Shown: one piece after another, positions 34,620 through 64,000 of the stretch
How positions within the stretch are numbered: position 1 is the stretch's first letter
Layout: each line of letters opens with the position of its first letter
Source: Candidatus Omnitrophota bacterium
GTDB taxonomy: Bacteria > Omnitrophota > Gorgyraeia > Duberdicusellales > 4484-171
Length of the DNA: 64,000 nt
Direction: 5' to 3'
Assembly: GCA_021735655.1 (NCBI GenBank)
Contig: JAIPGM010000008.1
Coordinates: 5,922-69,921, forward strand
Position numbers and translations under genes: made by a program
The notes under the pieces: generated by a model
Told to the model about the DNA's origin: nothing
The model's input: the letters and a program-made list of their open reading frames with translations, nothing else
The model's database searches: none

Positions 34620-36188
34620 TTAGTTTTTATTCATCCCGCTTATTAAAGTGGGATATTTTTTTCGGAGAGGTCGCATAGCCCGGTCGAGTGCGCGTGTTTG
34701 GAGTACACGTAGGCCCTTTGGGTCTCCAGGGTTCGAATCCCTGCCTCTCCGCCATTTTTGAGAGCGGGCAATTTTGGCAACTATACTGAACGGCTCGGAC
34801 CAATAAAATGAAAGGTTTTTGTCTTTCAAAGTATGGTTCGAGCCGTTTGTTTTTAAAAAATCCCTTTTTTGCGACAGGTTTCCTTGCCAAGCGACAGAAC
34901 CGGCTAAATTGCAAGAGGTAATGAAGTTTTTAGAGAGTTCGAGCCAGCCGCCGCTTTGTTTCTCTATCTCGCCAAGCCTTTCCTGTAAATCTTTCTTTTC
35001 ATTGAGCAATTTAGCCTTCTTATGCTGATATTCTTCCTGCGATATATCACGCTCAACATATAAATCAATAAGCCTTTCTATTTTGCCGTCAATTGAGCTA
35101 AGTTTATCTTGTAATTGGCGAGATAGAGAAAAAGAGGCTTTGCGATTAATCTCGGCTAATTCATCAAGGCGGTTAAAAATAACATCTTTACCATTATCAG
35201 GGATAAACACCTGCATTAAGGCTTTATTAACTTGCTCAAGCAAAGCCTCTTCTCGAAGAAACTTTTGCGAACAACGCCTGATTTTCTTGGTACAACGATA
35301 ATAAATATGGCCTTTTTGCATTTCAGCGGTAATTGAGCCACCGCACTCACTGCATTTAATAAAGCCTCGAAAGGCAAATTTAACTTGGTTACGCTGTTGC
35401 GGCCGAGTTTTTCGGGATAATACCTCTTGGCACCTATCAAAAAGTTTCTTCGAGATGAGCGGCGGATGGCTGCCTTCATACATTTCGCCTTTAAACCTGA
35501 TAACCCCATAGTAAAAAGGATTTTGCAACAGCCTTGCAAGTTTACTCTTATGGACAGGCTTGCCCTTTCTGCCGATTAAACCCCAGGTTTTAACCTCCTG
35601 CATAAGCTCATAAAGTGAAAAGTTACCCGTGGCGTAAACTTCAAAAATTTTCTTAATATATGGAGAACGTTCAGCATCAGGAATAATAACTCTGGTTTTA
35701 CGGTCATTAACATAACCTAAAGGAGCATAAATAGGCCATACGCCACGGCGTAGCTTTTCACGCATACCACGCCTAATATTCTCGGAAAGATTATCTATAT
35801 AATACTTAGATTGTCCAAAAGCGATAGAGAGCATAAACTTACCTTGAGCAGTGTTATCAAAGCGGTAAGTAGGAAAACGTAAGTCTTTTATAACCCCTAA
35901 ATCAACCAAATAGATAATCTTACCACCATCAAGAGAGTTTCGGGCAAGCCTGTCCGGATGCCATGCCAAAATACCATCGGCATTACCACTTTCTAACTGC
36001 TGCAAAACAAACTCGAAGATAGGCCGTCCGGGACACTTGGCTGATTTGGCTTCCGAAAATTCATCAACCACAAAGAGGGATTCTTTCTTGGCATATTCGC
36101 GCAACTCGTTTATTTGGGACTCAATACTAAGGACCTGCCTATCTTCGGCATCAGTAGATTTCCTGGCATATAAAAGATATTTTGGCAT
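34620..36188 (-). CDS. Large serine recombinase (integrase); annotated 3' end reads antisense through tRNA-Ser
   Basis: N-terminal YARKSTDAEDRQ..SIESQ with catalytic Ser; recombinase domain; zinc beta-ribbon CSECGG...YYRC; coiled coil. Last ~45 codons are antisense of the tRNA (GRDSNPG = T-loop antisense), so the true C-terminus is uncertain. Confidence 0.8.
   Translation of the reverse strand: MPKYLLYARKSTDAEDRQVLSIESQINELREYAKKESLFVVDEFSEAKSAKCPGRPIFEFVLQQLESGNADGILAWHPDRLARNSLDGGKIIYLVDLGVIKDLRFPTYRFDNTAQGKFMLSIAFGQSKYYIDNLSENIRRGMREKLRRGVWPIYAPLGYVNDRKTRVIIPDAERSPYIKKIFEVYATGNFSLYELMQEVKTWGLIGRKGKPVHKSKLARLLQNPFYYGVIRFKGEMYEGSHPPLISKKLFDRCQEVLSRKTRPQQRNQVKFAFRGFIKCSECGGSITAEMQKGHIYYRCTKKIRRCSQKFLREEALLEQVNKALMQVFIPDNGKDVIFNRLDELAEINRKASFSLSRQLQDKLSSIDGKIERLIDLYVERDISQEEYQHKKAKLLNEKKDLQERLGEIEKQSGGWLELSKNFITSCNLAGSVAWQGNLSQKRDFLKTNGSNHTLKDKNLSFYWSEPFSIVAKIARSQKWRRGRDSNPGDPKGLRVLQTRALDRAMRPLRKKYPTLISGMNKN
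34664..34754 (+). tRNA. tRNA-Ser (anticodon GGA), type II with long variable arm, CCA encoded
   Basis: Acceptor GGAGAGG/CCTCTCC; anticodon stem CGTGT/ACACG with loop TTGGAGT; variable arm TAGGCCCTTTGGGTCTCC; T-arm CAGGG-TTCGAAT-CCCTG; ends GCCA. Confidence 0.85.
34749..34780. repeat. Left copy of a perfect 32-bp inverted repeat bracketing the recombinase gene (ccgccatttttgagagcgggcaattttggcaa)
   Basis: Exact reverse complement occurs at 36323..36354; the left copy overlaps the last 6 nt of tRNA-Ser. Confidence 0.85.
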
Positions 36189-36322
36189 GGCTTAAACCTC
36201 CCTCTAAGGTTCTGTCGCTTGGCAAAGATGATTTCAGAGATTCTAAGCAAATCTCAGAAATTAGATTAGCGACACCGCAGGTGGAGCAAAGGAAACCTGG
36301 AAGCAAAAAAGTTGATTTTTTG

Positions 36323-36354
36323 TTGCCAAAATTGCCCGCTCTCAAAAATGGCGG
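36323..36354. repeat. Right copy of the 32-bp inverted repeat
   Basis: ttgccaaaattgcccgctctcaaaaatggcgg is the reverse complement of 34749..34780. Confidence 0.85.
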
Positions 36355-36534
36355 TGTATAGGGGACGCAGTCCGAACCTTTTATGCAGCCGAAGGTGGTA
36401 TTTAATGCCTATGAATTCGGCTGCTGTCTCCCTTATCGGCCCACGTGGGCCGATAAGGCATCCCTGCGGCCTCTCCCTCGCAAAAATCTATATATTTTTA
36501 ATGCGGCGGCGGAAAATTTTTTTATTTTTTGTAA
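36353..36534. repeat. Copy 1 of a ~190-bp inverted-repeat element with internal hairpins (candidate MITE/att/ncRNA)
   Basis: About 90% identical to the reverse complement of 43038..43231. Contains hairpin cagccgaa...ttcggctg and the perfect palindrome ccttatcggcccacgtgggccgataagg. Confidence 0.75.
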
Positions 36535-36945
36535 ATAAGGAGTTTTTGCTCGGGTTCGGCCGCACCCCTTGCCACCTTTGTTAACATTGCGTATTTAATT
36601 ATATGATATGGTGTTGATTAAGGCAAGTCATTTCCATCTTGGCAGGGTTTTCCTTATTCTGGTAGCCAGTGGCAAGGGGGCAGCCTCATCGTGGTGAAAG
36701 CCTGGCGTGGTTGGCGGTCTGTTCCGCCCCGCCTATACGGCGTGGCTTGGTGGTTATTGGAAAGTCTTCCTCAAACGCCTGCCTTCCGGCAGGCTTAGGC
36801 TTTCAGCCTAAAAATAAGAAAAGCCTGCTCTTCAGGCAGGCGCTTTCGTCAGTCTTTTATTCCGCAGTAGCGGAATAAAAAATATACGACACAATCAATA
36901 AAAGATTTAAAAAAGTAAAATAAAAATAGGTAGGCTTAATTCGAA

Positions 36946-43037: not shown

Positions 43038-43231
43038 TTGAAAATTCGTTTACAAAAAATAAAAAAATTTTCCGCCGCCGCATTAAAAATATATAGATTT
43101 TTGCGAGGGAGAGGCCGCAGGGATGCCTTATCGGCCCACGTGGGCCGATAAGGAAGACAGCAGCCGAATTCATAGGCGTTAGCGAGCACCTTCGGCTGTG
43201 TAAAAGGTTCGGACTGCGTCCCCTATACACC
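43038..43231. repeat. Copy 2 (inverted) of the ~190-bp repeat element
   Basis: Reverse complement of 36353..36534. Differences in the loop of the first hairpin are clustered (ggtatttaat vs gctcgctaac) while the stems are conserved. Confidence 0.75.
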
Positions 43232-43290
43232 GTTTTTACATCTACCACCTACCTATTCCAAAACTAACTCAATAGTGATATAATCTAACT

Positions 43291-60371: not shown

Positions 60372-60615
60372 TAAAATATTATAGCATATTTCCCGAGTTT
60401 TACATCTCTGAATGAGCGTAAGCAGTTATTGACGCTTTTAGCGAAATAGGTTATAATTTATCCTCAAAAGAGAGTTCTTTAAAATCAGGCAATATCGGCG
60501 CACCTAAATATTTGTAAAATTTCTAAGAAAATTTTACAAAAGTGTGCCGATATAAGTAAATCTAAAGTTTTTATCATACACTTACTGTATTTCTAAAAAC
60601 CTAAGATTTACTAAT

Positions 60616-61018
60616 TCCCCGGTAGCTCAGTTGGTAGAGCGCATGGCTGTCAATGAGGCCGCAACTTTTAGAGCCGAAGGCGAATAAAAGCTGCATGGCC
60701 GAATTGGTTCCGCCGAGTTATGGTGAATTTCTTTCATAAATTCACCATATATTTAGCGAGGCGGAACTAAGTATGGCAGCTCTCATGAGAAATCATGAGA
60801 TGATAAGCGGGCTAATTCAGGGAACCCTAAGTCTCGTAAGAGATATGGCAATCCTGAGCTAAATGTGCAAGATGAAAATCTTGCGCTAAATGTGCAGAGA
60901 CTATATACCCGCCTCCTAAAGCCAAAAGCCATGGAGATGAGATAGTCCAGTCCTTAAGGAAACTTAAGGGGTAACTGTAACCATGATGTCCGAGGTTCGA
61001 GCCCTCGCCGGGGAGCCA
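60616..61018 (+). tRNA. tRNA-Asn (anticodon GUU) interrupted by a 327-nt group I intron in the anticodon loop
   Basis: Exon 1 60616..60650 (TCCCCGGTAGCTCAGTTGGTAGAGCGCATGGCTGT); exon 2 60978..61018 (TAACCATGATGTCCGAGGTTCGAGCCCTCGCCGGGGAGCCA). Joined sequence closely matches E. coli tRNA-Asn as recalled. Intron has P/Q/R/S-like blocks (aattcagggaaccctaag; aatcctgagctaaatg; cagagactata; gagatagtccag) and terminal G. Confidence 0.75.
60651..60977 (+). ncRNA. Group I intron (self-splicing ribozyme candidate) within tRNA-Asn
   Basis: Conserved R (cAGAGACUAuA) and S (GAUAGUCCag) elements able to form P7; 5' splice site after U; 3' terminal G; P9-like hairpin ccttaagg-aaac-ttaagg; no ORF inside. 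Confidence 0.7.
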
Positions 61019-62680
61019 GTTAGACGTCTGACAGCGGATTTCTTCGCTGTCGGATTCGCATAGATCAAATAGCCCTGTGTCGGGTTGACGCCCATACAGG
61101 GCTATTTGTATTTTGGTGGGGCTTAAAACGGCTTTGTGCAGGACGAGCCTTACCATATCCTTCTGCCGATAAGGTTTTATCTTATCGAAAAGGTCGGAGA
61201 ATCGGCTCAAAGCCAATGTTACAAGCTCCTGACTTATCGATTCCCGCTCGATTTCCTTGATCATGGCCTCAAGCGAGGCTATGCCGGTTTCTATCTCTTT
61301 CCGGCGCTGGCCAAGCTCTGCAAGTTTCTCTTTCAGGAATATACTGCTGTCATCCGTGGCCATGGCAGTCCATTTATTCATTATTCCATCGGCAAAGGCC
61401 TTGACCTCGGCCAGTTCTTTTTGAAGGTGCGTTCTCCGGTATTTAAGCTGTGGTAGTTCCTTCATGAGCTTTTCATTGGTATGTTCTATCAGTTTTTGCA
61501 TAAGGCCGGAATCGGATGAGAGATATTTTATTCTCTCGATTATGATACGCTCTATCTCATCGGCCGGGAGTTTAAATCTGCAGGCTTTATCTTTGCATAC
61601 ATAGAAAAAGTATTTATTGCCACGTCTGCCTGTTCCGCAGGTTCCTTCCATCTGACCACCGCATTTACCGCACCACAAAAGCCCGCCATTAAGGATATAA
61701 GCGTGTTTTATTGTCTTTGTGCCGTTGTGTTTCGTTTTGGTGTTTTGTTTGATGAGCTTCTGGACCTTGTAGAAGGTCTCCTCATCGATTAAAGGCTCCC
61801 AGACCGCCTTGACGGTCCTGTAACGCTCTTTTTCCTGTAGCTTAGACTGATCCTGCAACCTTTTCTTTTTATTGATCTCTTTAAGCCCGATATAAGCGCA
61901 ATTGACGAGTAGTTGTTTTATAGATGATCTGCCGAATTTCTCGGGAGTGCGGAATTTGCCTCTGCGAGAGGTGTACCCTTTGGTGCGATAGCCATTATCA
62001 TTAAGGGCCCGGGCAGTTCCCATAAGCGATCCGCACTCAAGGTATTTCTTAAAGGCAAACCGCACGAGGGCCTTTTCTTTTTCGTTTACTATTGGATAAC
62101 CTTTGCGTTTTGGATCGAGGTCATATCCCAGCAAATGCCCGCCGTTCCAGAGTCCACGCTCGGCCCGGGCAAGACACGCTTCTTTATTGCGCTCGGAGGT
62201 TTGTGTCCGCTCGAATTCTGCGAGAGCCATCATTATTGTTATGAATAACTTGCCTTGAGAGGACGTGGTATCGTAGTTCTGTTTTAAGCATACGAATTCG
62301 ACATCGTATTTGGTGAGGATCTCGAAGAAGTTCAAGAAATCCCTGACTGAGCGACTTATCCGATCAAGTGCGGTACATATAACGGTATTTACCTTGCCTG
62401 ACTTGATATCTTCAAGAAGCTGGGTGAATTCGATGCTCCGGAAGGAATCTTTGCCAGATACGCCTTTCAGGATATACCGGCCGGTTTCGACCCATCGTTC
62501 CCCGCAGGCAGTGGTCTTATATTCGATATGGGCCTGCAGGCGCTGTAGCTGATTGGTAAGCGAGCCCTCGGGATTTCGGGCCTGCTTGTCGGTGCTTACC
62601 CTTATCACAAATCCGCAATTCTTTATTATCTTATCTTCCATAACAACACAACCCCTATAACAATACTTGGCACAAGTCAA
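60827..62680 (-). CDS. Large serine recombinase (integrase); 3' end reads antisense through tRNA-Asn exon 2 and intron
   Basis: N-terminal FVIRVSTDKQ with catalytic Ser; zinc ribbon CGKCGG...YVCKDKAC; coiled coil. Last ~90 codons overlap the att-like IR and tRNA, so the true C-terminus is probably shorter. Confidence 0.8.
   Translation of the reverse strand: MTCAKYCYRGCVVMEDKIIKNCGFVIRVSTDKQARNPEGSLTNQLQRLQAHIEYKTTACGERWVETGRYILKGVSGKDSFRSIEFTQLLEDIKSGKVNTVICTALDRISRSVRDFLNFFEILTKYDVEFVCLKQNYDTTSSQGKLFITIMMALAEFERTQTSERNKEACLARAERGLWNGGHLLGYDLDPKRKGYPIVNEKEKALVRFAFKKYLECGSLMGTARALNDNGYRTKGYTSRRGKFRTPEKFGRSSIKQLLVNCAYIGLKEINKKKRLQDQSKLQEKERYRTVKAVWEPLIDEETFYKVQKLIKQNTKTKHNGTKTIKHAYILNGGLLWCGKCGGQMEGTCGTGRRGNKYFFYVCKDKACRFKLPADEIERIIIERIKYLSSDSGLMQKLIEHTNEKLMKELPQLKYRRTHLQKELAEVKAFADGIMNKWTAMATDDSSIFLKEKLAELGQRRKEIETGIASLEAMIKEIERESISQELVTLALSRFSDLFDKIKPYRQKDMVRLVLHKAVLSPTKIQIALYGRQPDTGLFDLCESDSEEIRCQTSNWLPGEGSNLGHHGYSYPLSFLKDWTISSPWLLALGGGYIVSAHLAQDFHLAHLAQDCHISYET
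61061..61101. repeat. 12-bp perfect inverted repeat with 17-bp spacer (candidate recombinase att core)
   Basis: aaatagccctgt-N17-acagggctattt, 43 bp downstream of the tRNA-Asn 3' end. Confidence 0.5.
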
Positions 62681-62892
62681 GCTGAATCAAGGCCTTGTAA
62701 GGGCGATTCATCGTTTGGCTTAGTTCTATCAAGCAGGGATTCAACCCGCTTTTTCCGCTCCGGGCGTTCCTTCAAGAGACCCTGATCCTTCAAGTACTCA
62801 TATAGCCCATCGGAGAGGATGTCGATAAACGCATCTTCCCACCGGGCCTTGTCTTTAATAGGTATATAGGATATCTCGATTTTCTTTTTCAT
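62677..62892 (-). CDS. Small protein immediately upstream of (overlapping) the recombinase gene; possible directionality factor
   Basis: 71 aa, 4-bp overlap with the recombinase start; no motif recognised. Confidence 0.3.
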   Translation of the reverse strand: MKKKIEISYIPIKDKARWEDAFIDILSDGLYEYLKDQGLLKERPERKKRVESLLDRTKPNDESPLQGLDSA

Positions 62893-62899
62893 TTCTGCC

Positions 62900-63480
62900 T
62901 CTATTTATGTATCCCGATTATTTTTAAGATTTGTCACAAAAAAAGTGTGACAATTCGCCGAAAAAATCGGGATATATAAGTGAGCGATGTTCTCAATGTA
63001 TGTATATGCCGTTTTTTCATGATTTGTCGCGCGACATTTCGGCCTAAAAAGGCATATACATGTAATGAGCGCCCAGTATGTGTATATCCCGTTTTATCTG
63101 GATTTGTCGCACTAAAAAATAAAAATCCGGTGCGACATTTTCGCCCAAAAGGGGATATACATACGCTAGTAGTTCTTTGTCAAAGATGTTCTCTACCGCA
63201 TGTATATGCTCTTTTTCTGAAAAATGTCACAGACGGTGTGACACTTTCTTGGAAAAAGGCATATACATACTGTGGGGGCCGATTGCTCTTTCGGGTGCCA
63301 CAAGCATATATACAGATTTTATTGGCATTGTGTGACACCCTTATTAGCTACATACGAAGACTTTTGCAAAGGTGCCGACTTTTTTTCATTTTTTTAAGTT
63401 TTTTTCGGCACTTTTCGGATTTTCATCGTATGTAGCTAGTAGAGGATTATAAGCGAGCGGAATATTTTTAAAAAAAGACC
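62900..63480. repeat. Array of five nested palindromic units (outer IR GTATATGCC/GGCATATAC-type, inner IR TGTCRCA...TGYGACA)
   Basis: Each ~70-90 bp unit has an outer IR (e.g. atgtatatgccgtttttt...aaaaaggcatatacat) around an inner IR (tgtcgcgcgaca; tgtcacaaaaaaagtgtgaca; tgtcgcac...gtgcgaca; tgtcacagacggtgtgaca). Confidence 0.7.
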
Positions 63481-63540
63481 GCACACTTTGAAAGAAAAAT
63501 CTGTATATACGCAGTAGGTAAATATAGCGAAGGGTAAAAA

Positions 63541-63771
63541 ATGAAGAATAAATATTTTGAGGCAGGCAATATCTATCTTGCGATCTATCTTGTGTTCCGG
63601 GGATTTACCATGCGTGGGCTATTGGGTTCCGGAAGGTCGAAAAGGGTTTTATTCGAGGATACGCCCGAGGTTCGAGCAACCTCGGATAATTTCTTTAAGG
63701 ATTCGGATACGCAGAGGCTTTTTAACTGCTACCGCAGAGTAAAGGATTTTATATTTCAAAACGGAGTGTAA
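63541..63771 (+). CDS. Hypothetical protein (76 aa)
   Basis: ORF with plausible RBS; no motif. Confidence 0.3.
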   Translation: MKNKYFEAGNIYLAIYLVFRGFTMRGLLGSGRSKRVLFEDTPEVRATSDNFFKDSDTQRLFNCYRRVKDFIFQNGV

Positions 63772-63773
63772 AA

Positions 63774-64000
63774 ATGAGAGAGAAGAGAAGAATAGCGAGA
63801 GAATATAACGCCGAAGATACCCCTGCCCAGGTCAAGCCTATCATCGAAAAGATTATCGATAATTGCCAGGTGAATTATCGCAAGGCGCATCCCACCCAGG
63901 GTGAAATACTTACACGATACTGCGAAAAAGAAATAACAGACTATTATCGTGATCAGCAAGGCAACTCCTTTATAGTGCTCCCTATCGATAATCATCTGGA
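63774..64000 (+). CDS. Hypothetical protein, N-terminal fragment (runs off window)
   Basis: ATG at 63774, open to the window end; basic N-terminus MREKRRIAREY. Confidence 0.3.
   Translation, partial: MREKRRIAREYNAEDTPAQVKPIIEKIIDNCQVNYRKAHPTQGEILTRYCEKEITDYYRDQQGNSFIVLPIDNHL

Follow-up and report, generated by a model that had tools for sequence, protein, structure and literature searches.

The 64,000-nt stretch analysed here (the window), taken from a contig of a Candidatus Omnitrophota bacterium (GenBank JAIPGM010000008.1, positions 5,922 to 69,921), carries near its end an integrative island inserted at a tRNA-Asn gene. The island consists, in this order, of a serine recombinase gene, an open reading frame (ORF) of 71 amino acids (aa), an array of nested palindromes, a gene for a DUF5659 protein and a helicase-like gene. 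The array fills the 648-nt gap between the 71-aa ORF on the minus strand and the DUF5659 ORF on the plus strand. We consider it rather probable that its palindromes are back-to-back promoter pairs of a phage type, multiplied six-fold on an island related to phages that encode their own sigma factor. In more general terms, the array is almost certainly a protein-recognised control region tied to the recombinase module.

Layout of the palindrome array

The palindromes were confirmed to be real, beyond chance and locally unique. The inner-repeat pattern TGTCRC-N0-30-GYGACA has four matches in the window, all between 62932 and 63243, against an expectation of 0.04, and matches to the outer motif ATGTATATGC, allowing one mismatch, are concentrated in the same stretch. 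Folding of each unit, which a preliminary description of this DNA had proposed, gave structures far better than those of shuffled sequences, with z -4.7 to -11 for RNA and z -3.7 to -9.6 for DNA. With four inner matches against 0.04 expected and fold energies 4-11 standard deviations beyond shuffles, the array is not a product of chance. An inverted-repeat search recovered the repeats I2, I3, I5 and I4 together with the split pair I6 (63304-63334 / 63482-63512). A profile of the half-unit, searched with nhmmer, matches exactly ten times in the window, always within 62907-63517 and on alternating minus and plus strands, and gives zero matches in the other 63 kb.

The preliminary description had counted five nested palindromes, ending at 63480, and had assigned to all of them an inner repeat of the form TGTCRCA...TGYGACA. 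The palindromes stand, and so does the form for four units, which are the compact nested palindromes at 62905-62979, 62992-63069, 63074-63164 and 63195-63273. The fifth hairpin (63342-63441) is a variant, here called class 2, with inner repeats GGTGCCGA/TCGGCAC and outer repeats AGCTACATACG/CGTATGTAGCT, and it sits within a further pair that is split (arms 63304-63338 and 63483-63517). The count therefore had to be revised to six pairs, or 12 arms (ten profile matches plus the two class-2 arms that the profile misses), one pair being nested in another, and the end of the array moved to 63517.

Each arm reads outward from the centre of its palindrome as TGYGACA, ~17 nt with an A-run, and GG(G/C)ATATACAT. 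The arm motif as a whole is bipartite and spans ~35 nt, with TGnGACA, ~17 nt containing the A-run, and (C)GTATA or GATATACA. The inner half-sites of a pair lie 0, 5, 7, 21 or 26 nt apart (range 0 to ~27 nt). Start-to-start spacing of the units is 93, 80 and 120 nt, their orientation alternates, and the gaps of 12-40 nt between them hold no ORFs.

Several familiar kinds of repeat could be set aside. The units are inverted repeats that are 62-81% alike, not identical direct repeats, and the earlier statement that this is not a clustered regularly interspaced short palindromic repeat (CRISPR) locus is borne out. All motif and profile matches of the window fall inside the array, which excludes a dispersed element of the repetitive extragenic palindrome (REP), bacterial interspersed mosaic element (BIME) or miniature inverted-repeat transposable element (MITE) type; the suggested link to mobile-element genes, here the recombinase module, holds as well. 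Only the inner hairpin of the fourth unit resembles an intrinsic terminator, the others having no T-run after the stem. An integron attC identity was rejected because the recombinase is of the serine type only and no ORFs lie between units. CRP sites, TGTGA-N6-TCACA, have the opposite orientation, and a consensus scan for canonical sigma-70 promoters (TTGACA/TATAAT) gave no more sites than shuffled sequence, so that the arms do not belong to this canonical type.

The arm motif in sigma-encoding phages and in islands

A first DNA-pattern scan of viral contigs returned 40 loci, of which L016 and L037 were real and the others single chance matches. Both phage contigs carry one palindrome between a serine integrase gene and a divergent small gene, with GAGG and ATG following straight on the outer box. 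Another 26 viral loci were found through homologues of the recombinase and of the neighbouring sigma-like gene. The sigma-like protein scores above threshold for Pfam Sigma70_r2 and matches the PHROG 'RNA polymerase sigma factor' at 1e-15; it is small (~190 aa), has two domains and resembles sigma factors of the extracytoplasmic function (ECF) class, the Pfam ECF model itself staying below threshold. A strict regular expression with a 16-19 nt spacer found 43 arms in the window and related loci versus 2.15 in shuffles, a 20-fold enrichment. A GTGACA..TGTCAC array in L042 proved to be a coding repeat (VTGD..) in a gene for a helix-turn-helix (HTH) protein and is irrelevant here.

The motif occurs two or three times per sigma-encoding phage locus and always points at a gene. 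In the loci L048-L061, one back-to-back pair lies between the integrase and the operon made up of a small gene and the sigma gene, while a third, unpaired arm stands right after the sigma stop codon and before the next gene. This common plan was seen in about a dozen phage loci. A ribosome-binding site follows the -10-like box by 6-7 nt in 31 of the 41 arms that precede an ORF of at least 50 aa, and the start codon of these gene-proximal arms mostly lies 17-22 nt from the box. The information content is highest in TGnGACA, in the A-run and in TATAnA, with the spacer free, a pattern that a promoter would show. The sigma gene is followed by a related bipartite motif, xGACAC-N15-17-CGTAT, in most of ~30 distinct loci, drawn from metagenome-assembled genomes (MAGs) of Omnitrophota, Planctomycetota, Chloroflexota, Elusimicrobiota and Latescibacterota. 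The arm behaves as a promoter in that it points at genes, mostly 6-7 nt before a ribosome-binding site, and follows the sigma gene. Its position, orientation, bipartite structure and linkage to the sigma gene thus point to a promoter, which is probably read by the phage sigma factor. In the window, the two outermost arms point at the 71-aa ORF and at the DUF5659 gene; the start codon of the latter lies 31 nt past the -10-like box of the last arm.

A genome scan found the closest relatives of the island (recombinase 89-97% identical) in Candidatus Omnitrophota MAGs, and further island contigs, L121-L125 among them, were reached via homologues of the 71-aa ORF and of DUF5659. The phage relatives carry the sigma gene in the same element as the motif, which follows it immediately. 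No sigma homologue was found in the window, nor in up to 10 kb of the islands L070, L073, L077 and L121-L125; the window reaches only ~480 nt past the array, and its copy is called sigma-less here from these relatives. Running the arm profile over ~1 Mb of sequence with nhmmer gave at most three matches per sigma-encoding locus and 2-12 per sigma-less island. All island arms (2-14 per island including those read by eye) lie in the intergenic region between the recombinase and the DUF5659 gene. The arrays are a property of the islands.

Copy number varies strongly even among close relatives, spanning 1 to 7 pairs in islands with 89-97% identical recombinases. Near-identical islands have one pair (L070), two pairs plus two class-2 pairs (L069), three pairs (L099) or six pairs (the window). 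The window and L125 are ~90% identical over shared units and differ by insertions and deletions of whole units, among them ~190 nt of additional class-2 units that sit precisely within the AT-rich centre of a class-2 palindrome. One and the same array was recovered from three samples (L121-L123). In L077, L073 and L074, whose recombinases are 66-68% identical, the arms are arranged mostly head-to-tail with a single back-to-back junction, about ten pointing towards DUF5659 and four towards the recombinase side. L077 has ~14 arms in total once those read by eye are added to the profile matches, at an irregular spacing of 36-59 nt, compared with 80-120 nt in the window. Multiplicity is thus conserved and palindromy is not.

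A different repeat family occupies the same intergenic position in two sigma-encoding loci that also carry DUF5659 and the helicase. In L071 (8900-9600), and likewise in L072, six repeats of ~120 nt lie between the sigma gene and the integrase-proximal promoter, each formed by a hairpin GAGACACC-(T-rich loop)-GGTGTCTC followed by GCCCAGATTCAGGATA.

The arms of an island array are also more diverse than those of a phage. Mean pairwise identity is 0.80 within a sigma-encoding locus and 0.67 within an island array (Mann-Whitney p = 7e-5), and a single array holds at least four sequence variants. Individual units have their nearest phage arms in different places, with U2 and U3 closest to L016/L037, U4 to L049/L051, U5 to L054 and class 2 to L067/L066. 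The sigma-encoding loci L067 and L066 have a single pair between integrase and sigma gene, with CGGCAC..CGTATGTAGC arms and a T-rich centre, the same as the class-2 palindrome. The two arms of one pair agree with each other (0.72 vs 0.63, p = 9e-7), in the three bases that precede GACA and the four that precede TATA (alignment columns 2-4 and 23-26). An 8-nt stretch beside the -35-like box is systematically different between the arms of a pair and never pairs. The unpaired third arm of the phages is 0.79 identical to its own pair, versus 0.67 to arms of other loci.

The arms further display a polarity in alignment columns 9-16 (e.g. 62922-62931 vs 62953-62960). Recombinase-side arms carry AAATC.. 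after the -35-like box, where DUF5659-side arms carry xTTTG/C... This is seen in nearly every unit of the alternating arrays and not in the head-to-tail arrays of L077.

Possible function of the array and competing explanations

Each half-palindrome would, in the reading we favour, be a ~35-bp promoter of the sigma-70 family, with TGnGACA(C) as -35-like element, a spacer of ~17 nt with an A-run, and (C)GTATA/GATATACA as -10-like element, and each palindrome would be two such promoters back to back, i.e. a divergent promoter pair. The promoter type would be a signature of temperate phages of Omnitrophota and other phyla that encode their own sigma factor. A single ancestral pair between the recombinase operon and the replication operon may have been multiplied to six. 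Leftward arms could then serve as tandem promoters for the 71-aa ORF and the recombinase, and rightward arms for DUF5659 and the helicase-like gene. The inner arms, which have no genes of their own and point in the same two directions, may act as extra tandem promoters, as extra sites for the holoenzyme, or as both. We hypothesize that the island is switched on by a sigma factor supplied in trans by a related phage upon infection or induction. Multiplicity and mixed variants could widen the range of phage sigma factors that activate the island, or could sequester holoenzyme; a helper-phage sensor, a sigma decoy and a transcription-primed origin are the candidate reasons for the multiplication.

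Known systems offer partial parallels. ECF-type (group 4) sigma factors have autoregulated regulons, and the promoter of Bacillus subtilis sigma-W, TGAAAC-N16-CGTA, is an example of their targets. Like these, the motif is bipartite, with '..AC' and 'CGT..' elements 15-17 nt apart, and precedes the operon of the phage sigma itself, a small two-domain protein. Unlike in ECF systems, the sigma factor is phage-encoded and stays below the threshold of the ECF model, and its reading of the motif is putative; the window clade has GATATACA or GCATATACA as -10 element rather than CGT, as well as a conserved A-run in the spacer. Phage sigma factors with private promoter sets, such as SPO1 gp28 and gp34, T4 gp55 and phiEco32 gp36, redirect the host core polymerase to conserved non-host promoters before phage operons. 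The present phages would resemble them in combining a sigma factor with a conserved non-host promoter before their operons, and differ in that these putative promoters are also multiplied and diversified on a separate island in which no sigma gene was seen.

Satellites provide a third comparison. The P4 promoters P_sid and P_LL are activated by P2 Ogr, and phage-inducible chromosomal islands (PICIs) are likewise induced by a helper. The island shares with them a small integrative format, an integrase, a primase/helicase, defence cargo and a control region that corresponds to a related phage's transcription machinery. When held against the definition of a phage satellite, the island provides the integrase and primase/helicase, and its relatives the restriction-modification and toxin-antitoxin cargo. 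It differs from P4 and PICIs in that no capsid-hijacking genes were identified, helper dependence is putative, and a sigma factor would take the place of the activator or antirepressor as the signal. We know of no satellite with an array of heterogeneous helper-type promoters. Neither these elements nor DUF5659, nor diversified promoter arrays on satellites, were found described in the literature searched, and the same holds for comparable sensing or decoying of a helper by satellites or defence islands; a preprint on Dehalococcoides IME1 proved unrelated, with no mention of sigma, promoter or serine recombinase. Repeated decoy sites that titrate transcription factors have been described in two reports (PMC3322331, PMC8599769). 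Tandem recognition sites without a gene to regulate could sequester their factor, which the inner arms would resemble; a decoy role of the array is hypothetical, and the factor would here be a sigma-polymerase holoenzyme.

A bolder version of the promoter reading can be offered only tentatively, and we consider it more likely wrong than right. A sigma-less, satellite-like defence island would have collected, as a multi-specific sigma trap, the divergent pairs of several helper-phage lineages, the four or more variants of the array matching different sigma clades. A phage sigma factor would fire the recombinase/excision and replication operons from the two ends of the array, and holoenzyme would meanwhile be titrated from the phage's promoters. 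The rapid gain and loss of whole units would, under this version, be the trace of an arms race.

The promoter-pair nature of a unit is ordinary, and it is the stacked, heterogeneous array on an island without a visible sigma gene that is the unusual variant. If the promoter reading is true, these loci would provide phage sigma/promoter pairs, concrete and open to test, for phages of uncultivated Omnitrophota and of neighbouring phyla, and would reveal a mobile island that eavesdrops on a phage's private sigma factor, and possibly soaks it up, via stacked and diversified promoters. For annotation it would mean that a long nested palindrome separating divergent operons of a mobile element can be a pair of back-to-back promoters, and that symmetry by itself gives no ground for calling an origin or an operator.

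A number of points weigh against the reading as promoters. The arms are identified as such by position and motif only; the T that ends TATAAT is missing from their -10-like box, and the resemblance of the motif to ECF promoters is loose. The short stretch of island past the array in the window means that 'sigma-less' is carried over from relatives. Inner promoters that face each other at 20-40 nt would interfere with one another. Agreement within pairs at the variable positions (columns 2-4 and 23-26) is also expected from selection on a hairpin. Finally, the array-bearing loci all carry the DUF5659 and primase/helicase module, and the sigma-encoding loci L071 and L072, with the same module, bear a different six-copy repeat in that place; repeats could hence relate to replication and not to the loss of sigma.

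The last of these points also speaks for the alternative that the array is a replication origin of the island, its units being initiator-binding or transcription-primed elements for the DUF5659 and primase/helicase operon, possibly of the promoter-plus-unwinding-element type found in T4 and T7. The array lies immediately upstream of that operon, just as the preliminary description had expected a replication module nearby, longer homologues of the helicase-like protein carry an NrS-1-type primase domain, and the class-2 units have 26-nt AT-rich centres. Against this, the motif also occurs in phages with no homologue of this helicase in the sequence analysed, where it stands in front of integrase, sigma operon and one further gene, in most cases with a ribosome-binding site 6-7 nt away. 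Arm orientation varies and spacing is irregular both in L077 and in the window, the units of one array differ in sequence, and L070 and L078 have the module yet one pair only. On balance we regard an origin as unlikely but still of some weight, since the primase/helicase-like operon begins directly after the array.

The iteron and partition-site readings are poorly supported. Iteron origins and centromere arrays (P4 ori/crr, F sopC, R1 parC) likewise consist of short repeated units clustered by maintenance genes of mobile elements. An iteron-type array, as had been suggested, requires regularly phased repeats in the same orientation, and the units here alternate in orientation, are irregularly spaced and heterogeneous, and also occur singly before unrelated genes. 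The proposal of a partition site finds no support in the genes: no ParA/ParB- or ParM/ParR-type Pfam families were found among the called genes of L121-L125 or seven proteins of L070/L099.

Somewhat less likely again is that the array is neutral debris, in which repeated unequal recombination or duplication at a recombination-prone palindrome left extra copies that have no function. The range from 1 to 7 pairs and the whole-unit insertions and deletions between close relatives would fit such a process. It does not account for the conserved positions of the -35-like box, the A-run and the -10-like box in inner arms whose spacers drift, nor for the recurrence of one array in three samples. Moreover, arrays arose in two arrangements, alternating and head-to-tail, and sigma-encoding relatives show no expansion of these arms.

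We give even less weight to an operator array, on which a dimeric repressor or activator of the island or a phage would bind the palindromes and control both divergent operons. The inverted-repeat symmetry, the concerted change of the arms of a pair, a position that is classical for genetic switches, and HTH_3 and S24/LexA-like genes in the cargo of relatives all speak for it. The half-site distances of 0 to ~27 nt, however, leave no fixed geometry for a dimer; solitary and head-to-tail arms occur, and at least four variants share an array. The flanking 71-aa and DUF5659 proteins show no HTH, and a model of DUF5659 (pLDDT, the predicted local distance difference test score, 89) gave no significant fold match in the PDB and no DNA-binding fold. 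The idea of sites for a dimeric regulator, raised in the preliminary description, is disfavoured accordingly.

The least probable of the alternatives we weighed is that the hairpin itself is the functional form, be it as a processed or antisense read-through RNA, as single-stranded DNA promoters or attC-like sites, or as extruded cruciforms. In its favour, folding predictions give very stable structures, the stem positions of a pair covary and the 8-nt internal loop never pairs, and units are gained and lost as wholes, with break points at palindrome centres and nested insertions. Yet no Rfam family was found at gathering thresholds, and a permissive run gave generic microRNA-precursor matches far below the cut-offs. 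Most hairpins have no U-tract after them, there is no integron integrase and there are no cassette ORFs, and the related head-to-tail arrays cannot form hairpins at all. The third, unpaired arm of the phages is of the same variant as the paired ones, which is explained by a reader acting in trans and not by pairing.

The island, its attachment site and other features of the window

Coordinates of the arms and of neighbouring features are collected in Table 1.

Table 1. Arms of the palindrome array, flanking genes and conserved sites (window coordinates unless a locus is named)
Feature	Position	Strand	Description	Basis
Arm U1L	62907..62940	-	TGTGACA..GGGATACAT; reads towards 71-aa ORF, then GAGG and ATG	nhmmer match, sequence
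Arm U1R	62945..62979	+	back-to-back with U1L, 7-nt centre	repeat I5, nhmmer
Arm U2L	62999..63032	-	CGCGACA..GGCATATACAT	repeat I3, nhmmer
Arm U2R	63030..63064	+	-35-like box overlaps that of U2L (TGTCGCGCGACA)	pattern scan, nhmmer
Arm U3L	63079..63112	-	TGCGACA..GGGATATACAC	nhmmer
Arm U3R	63130..63164	+	inner repeats of the pair separated by 21-nt centre	pattern scan, nhmmer
Arm U4L	63198..63232	-	TGTGACA..GAGCATATACAT	repeat I2, nhmmer
Arm U4R	63236..63270	+		repeat I2, nhmmer
Arm U5L	63304..63338	-	TGTCACA..TCTGTATATATGC; left half of pair split by 147-nt insert	repeat I6, nhmmer
Class-2 palindrome	63342..63441	.	arms (G/T)TCGGCAC..TCGTATGTAGCTA, 26-nt AT-rich centre, nested in U5	repeat I4, fold
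Arm U5R	63483..63517	+	CCGCACAC..TCTGTATATACGC; reads into DUF5659 gene	nhmmer
71-aa ORF	62677..62892	-	between array and recombinase	
Large serine recombinase	60827..62641	-		Pfam Resolvase, Recombinase, Zn_ribbon_recom
DUF5659 protein	63541..63771	+	first gene of rightward operon	Pfam; 35 homologues
Helicase-like protein (start)	63774..64000	+	cut by window end; homologous to 553-aa protein of L070 and 794-aa protein of L077	
tRNA-Asn(GTT) with group I intron	60620..61021	+	island attachment site	Rfam RF00028, 79 bits; sequence
Conserved pre-recombinase site GCTTGACTTGT, window	~62655-62690	-		
Conserved pre-recombinase site, L016	11240-11275			
Conserved pre-recombinase site, L070	9955-9995			
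Conserved pre-recombinase site, L067	1815-1860			

The relatives of the island are built alike. Their recombinase gene overlaps a tRNA-Asn gene with its 3' end, and on its other side come the 71-aa ORF, the array, DUF5659, the helicase-like protein and cargo, for example AbiE, RadC, restriction-modification systems or toxin-antitoxin genes. The 71-aa ORF is kept in all related islands and in some phages; it has no known domain, and one might guess that it is an excision factor. Six aligned versions of it were too diverse to serve a collection scan. Exact-protein look-ups of the two small ORFs gave no match. The 553-aa helicase-like protein of L070 has no Pfam or PHROG match, and of these two proteins only the longer one, that of L077, shows the primase domain. 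Evidence for this domain in longer relatives comes from PDB primase matches and from Pfam NrS1-1_pol-like_HBD.

In the window, recombinase and tRNA-Asn genes overlap, the former with its 3' end and the latter with its 3' half; the recombinase ORF runs on the opposite strand through this half and into a group I intron. The intron core lies at 60725-60969, and the tRNA gene was missed by ARAGORN; joining the exons by eye gives ...CATGGCTGT|TAACCATG... with the anticodon loop CUGUUAA. A tRNA-Asn gene without the intron occupies the same position in L077, L073, L078 and L016. In the 89%-identical island L070 (9962-12064) the recombinase ORF, instead of ending in tRNA sequence, extends past ..SNWLP by ~150 aa, into an HTH-like tail, and no tRNA was detected in the locus. 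This suggests that the junction differs there, through insertion in another context or through rearrangement of the crossover point. No far attachment boundary came to light in direct-repeat searches of the L077 and L073 islands.

A further site, GCTTGACTTGT-N13-15-TATAGGG(T/G)T, is strongly conserved shortly before the start codon of the recombinase, both in islands and in phages, and overlaps the stop codon of the 71-aa ORF in the islands. It could be a host-type promoter of the integrase gene or some other conserved site.

Outside the island, the intergenic host DNA that separates a DUF2179 gene from the tRNA-Asn gene contains a 62-nt palindrome with an AT-rich core (60492-60553, ATATCGGCGCAC...GTGTGCCGATAT). 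Folded as DNA it reaches a z of -6.4, and it has CCGATATA in common with the arms, the -35-like box being absent at the right distance. The first serine recombinase gene of the window (34620..36188, minus strand) is bracketed by perfect 33-nt inverted repeats (34749-34781 / 36322-36354), the left copy of which starts in the 3' end of a tRNA-Ser(GGA) gene. An adjoining 184-nt inverted repeat (96% identical; 36352-36535 / 43049-43232) brackets a 6.5-kb segment that could be an invertible or nested element.

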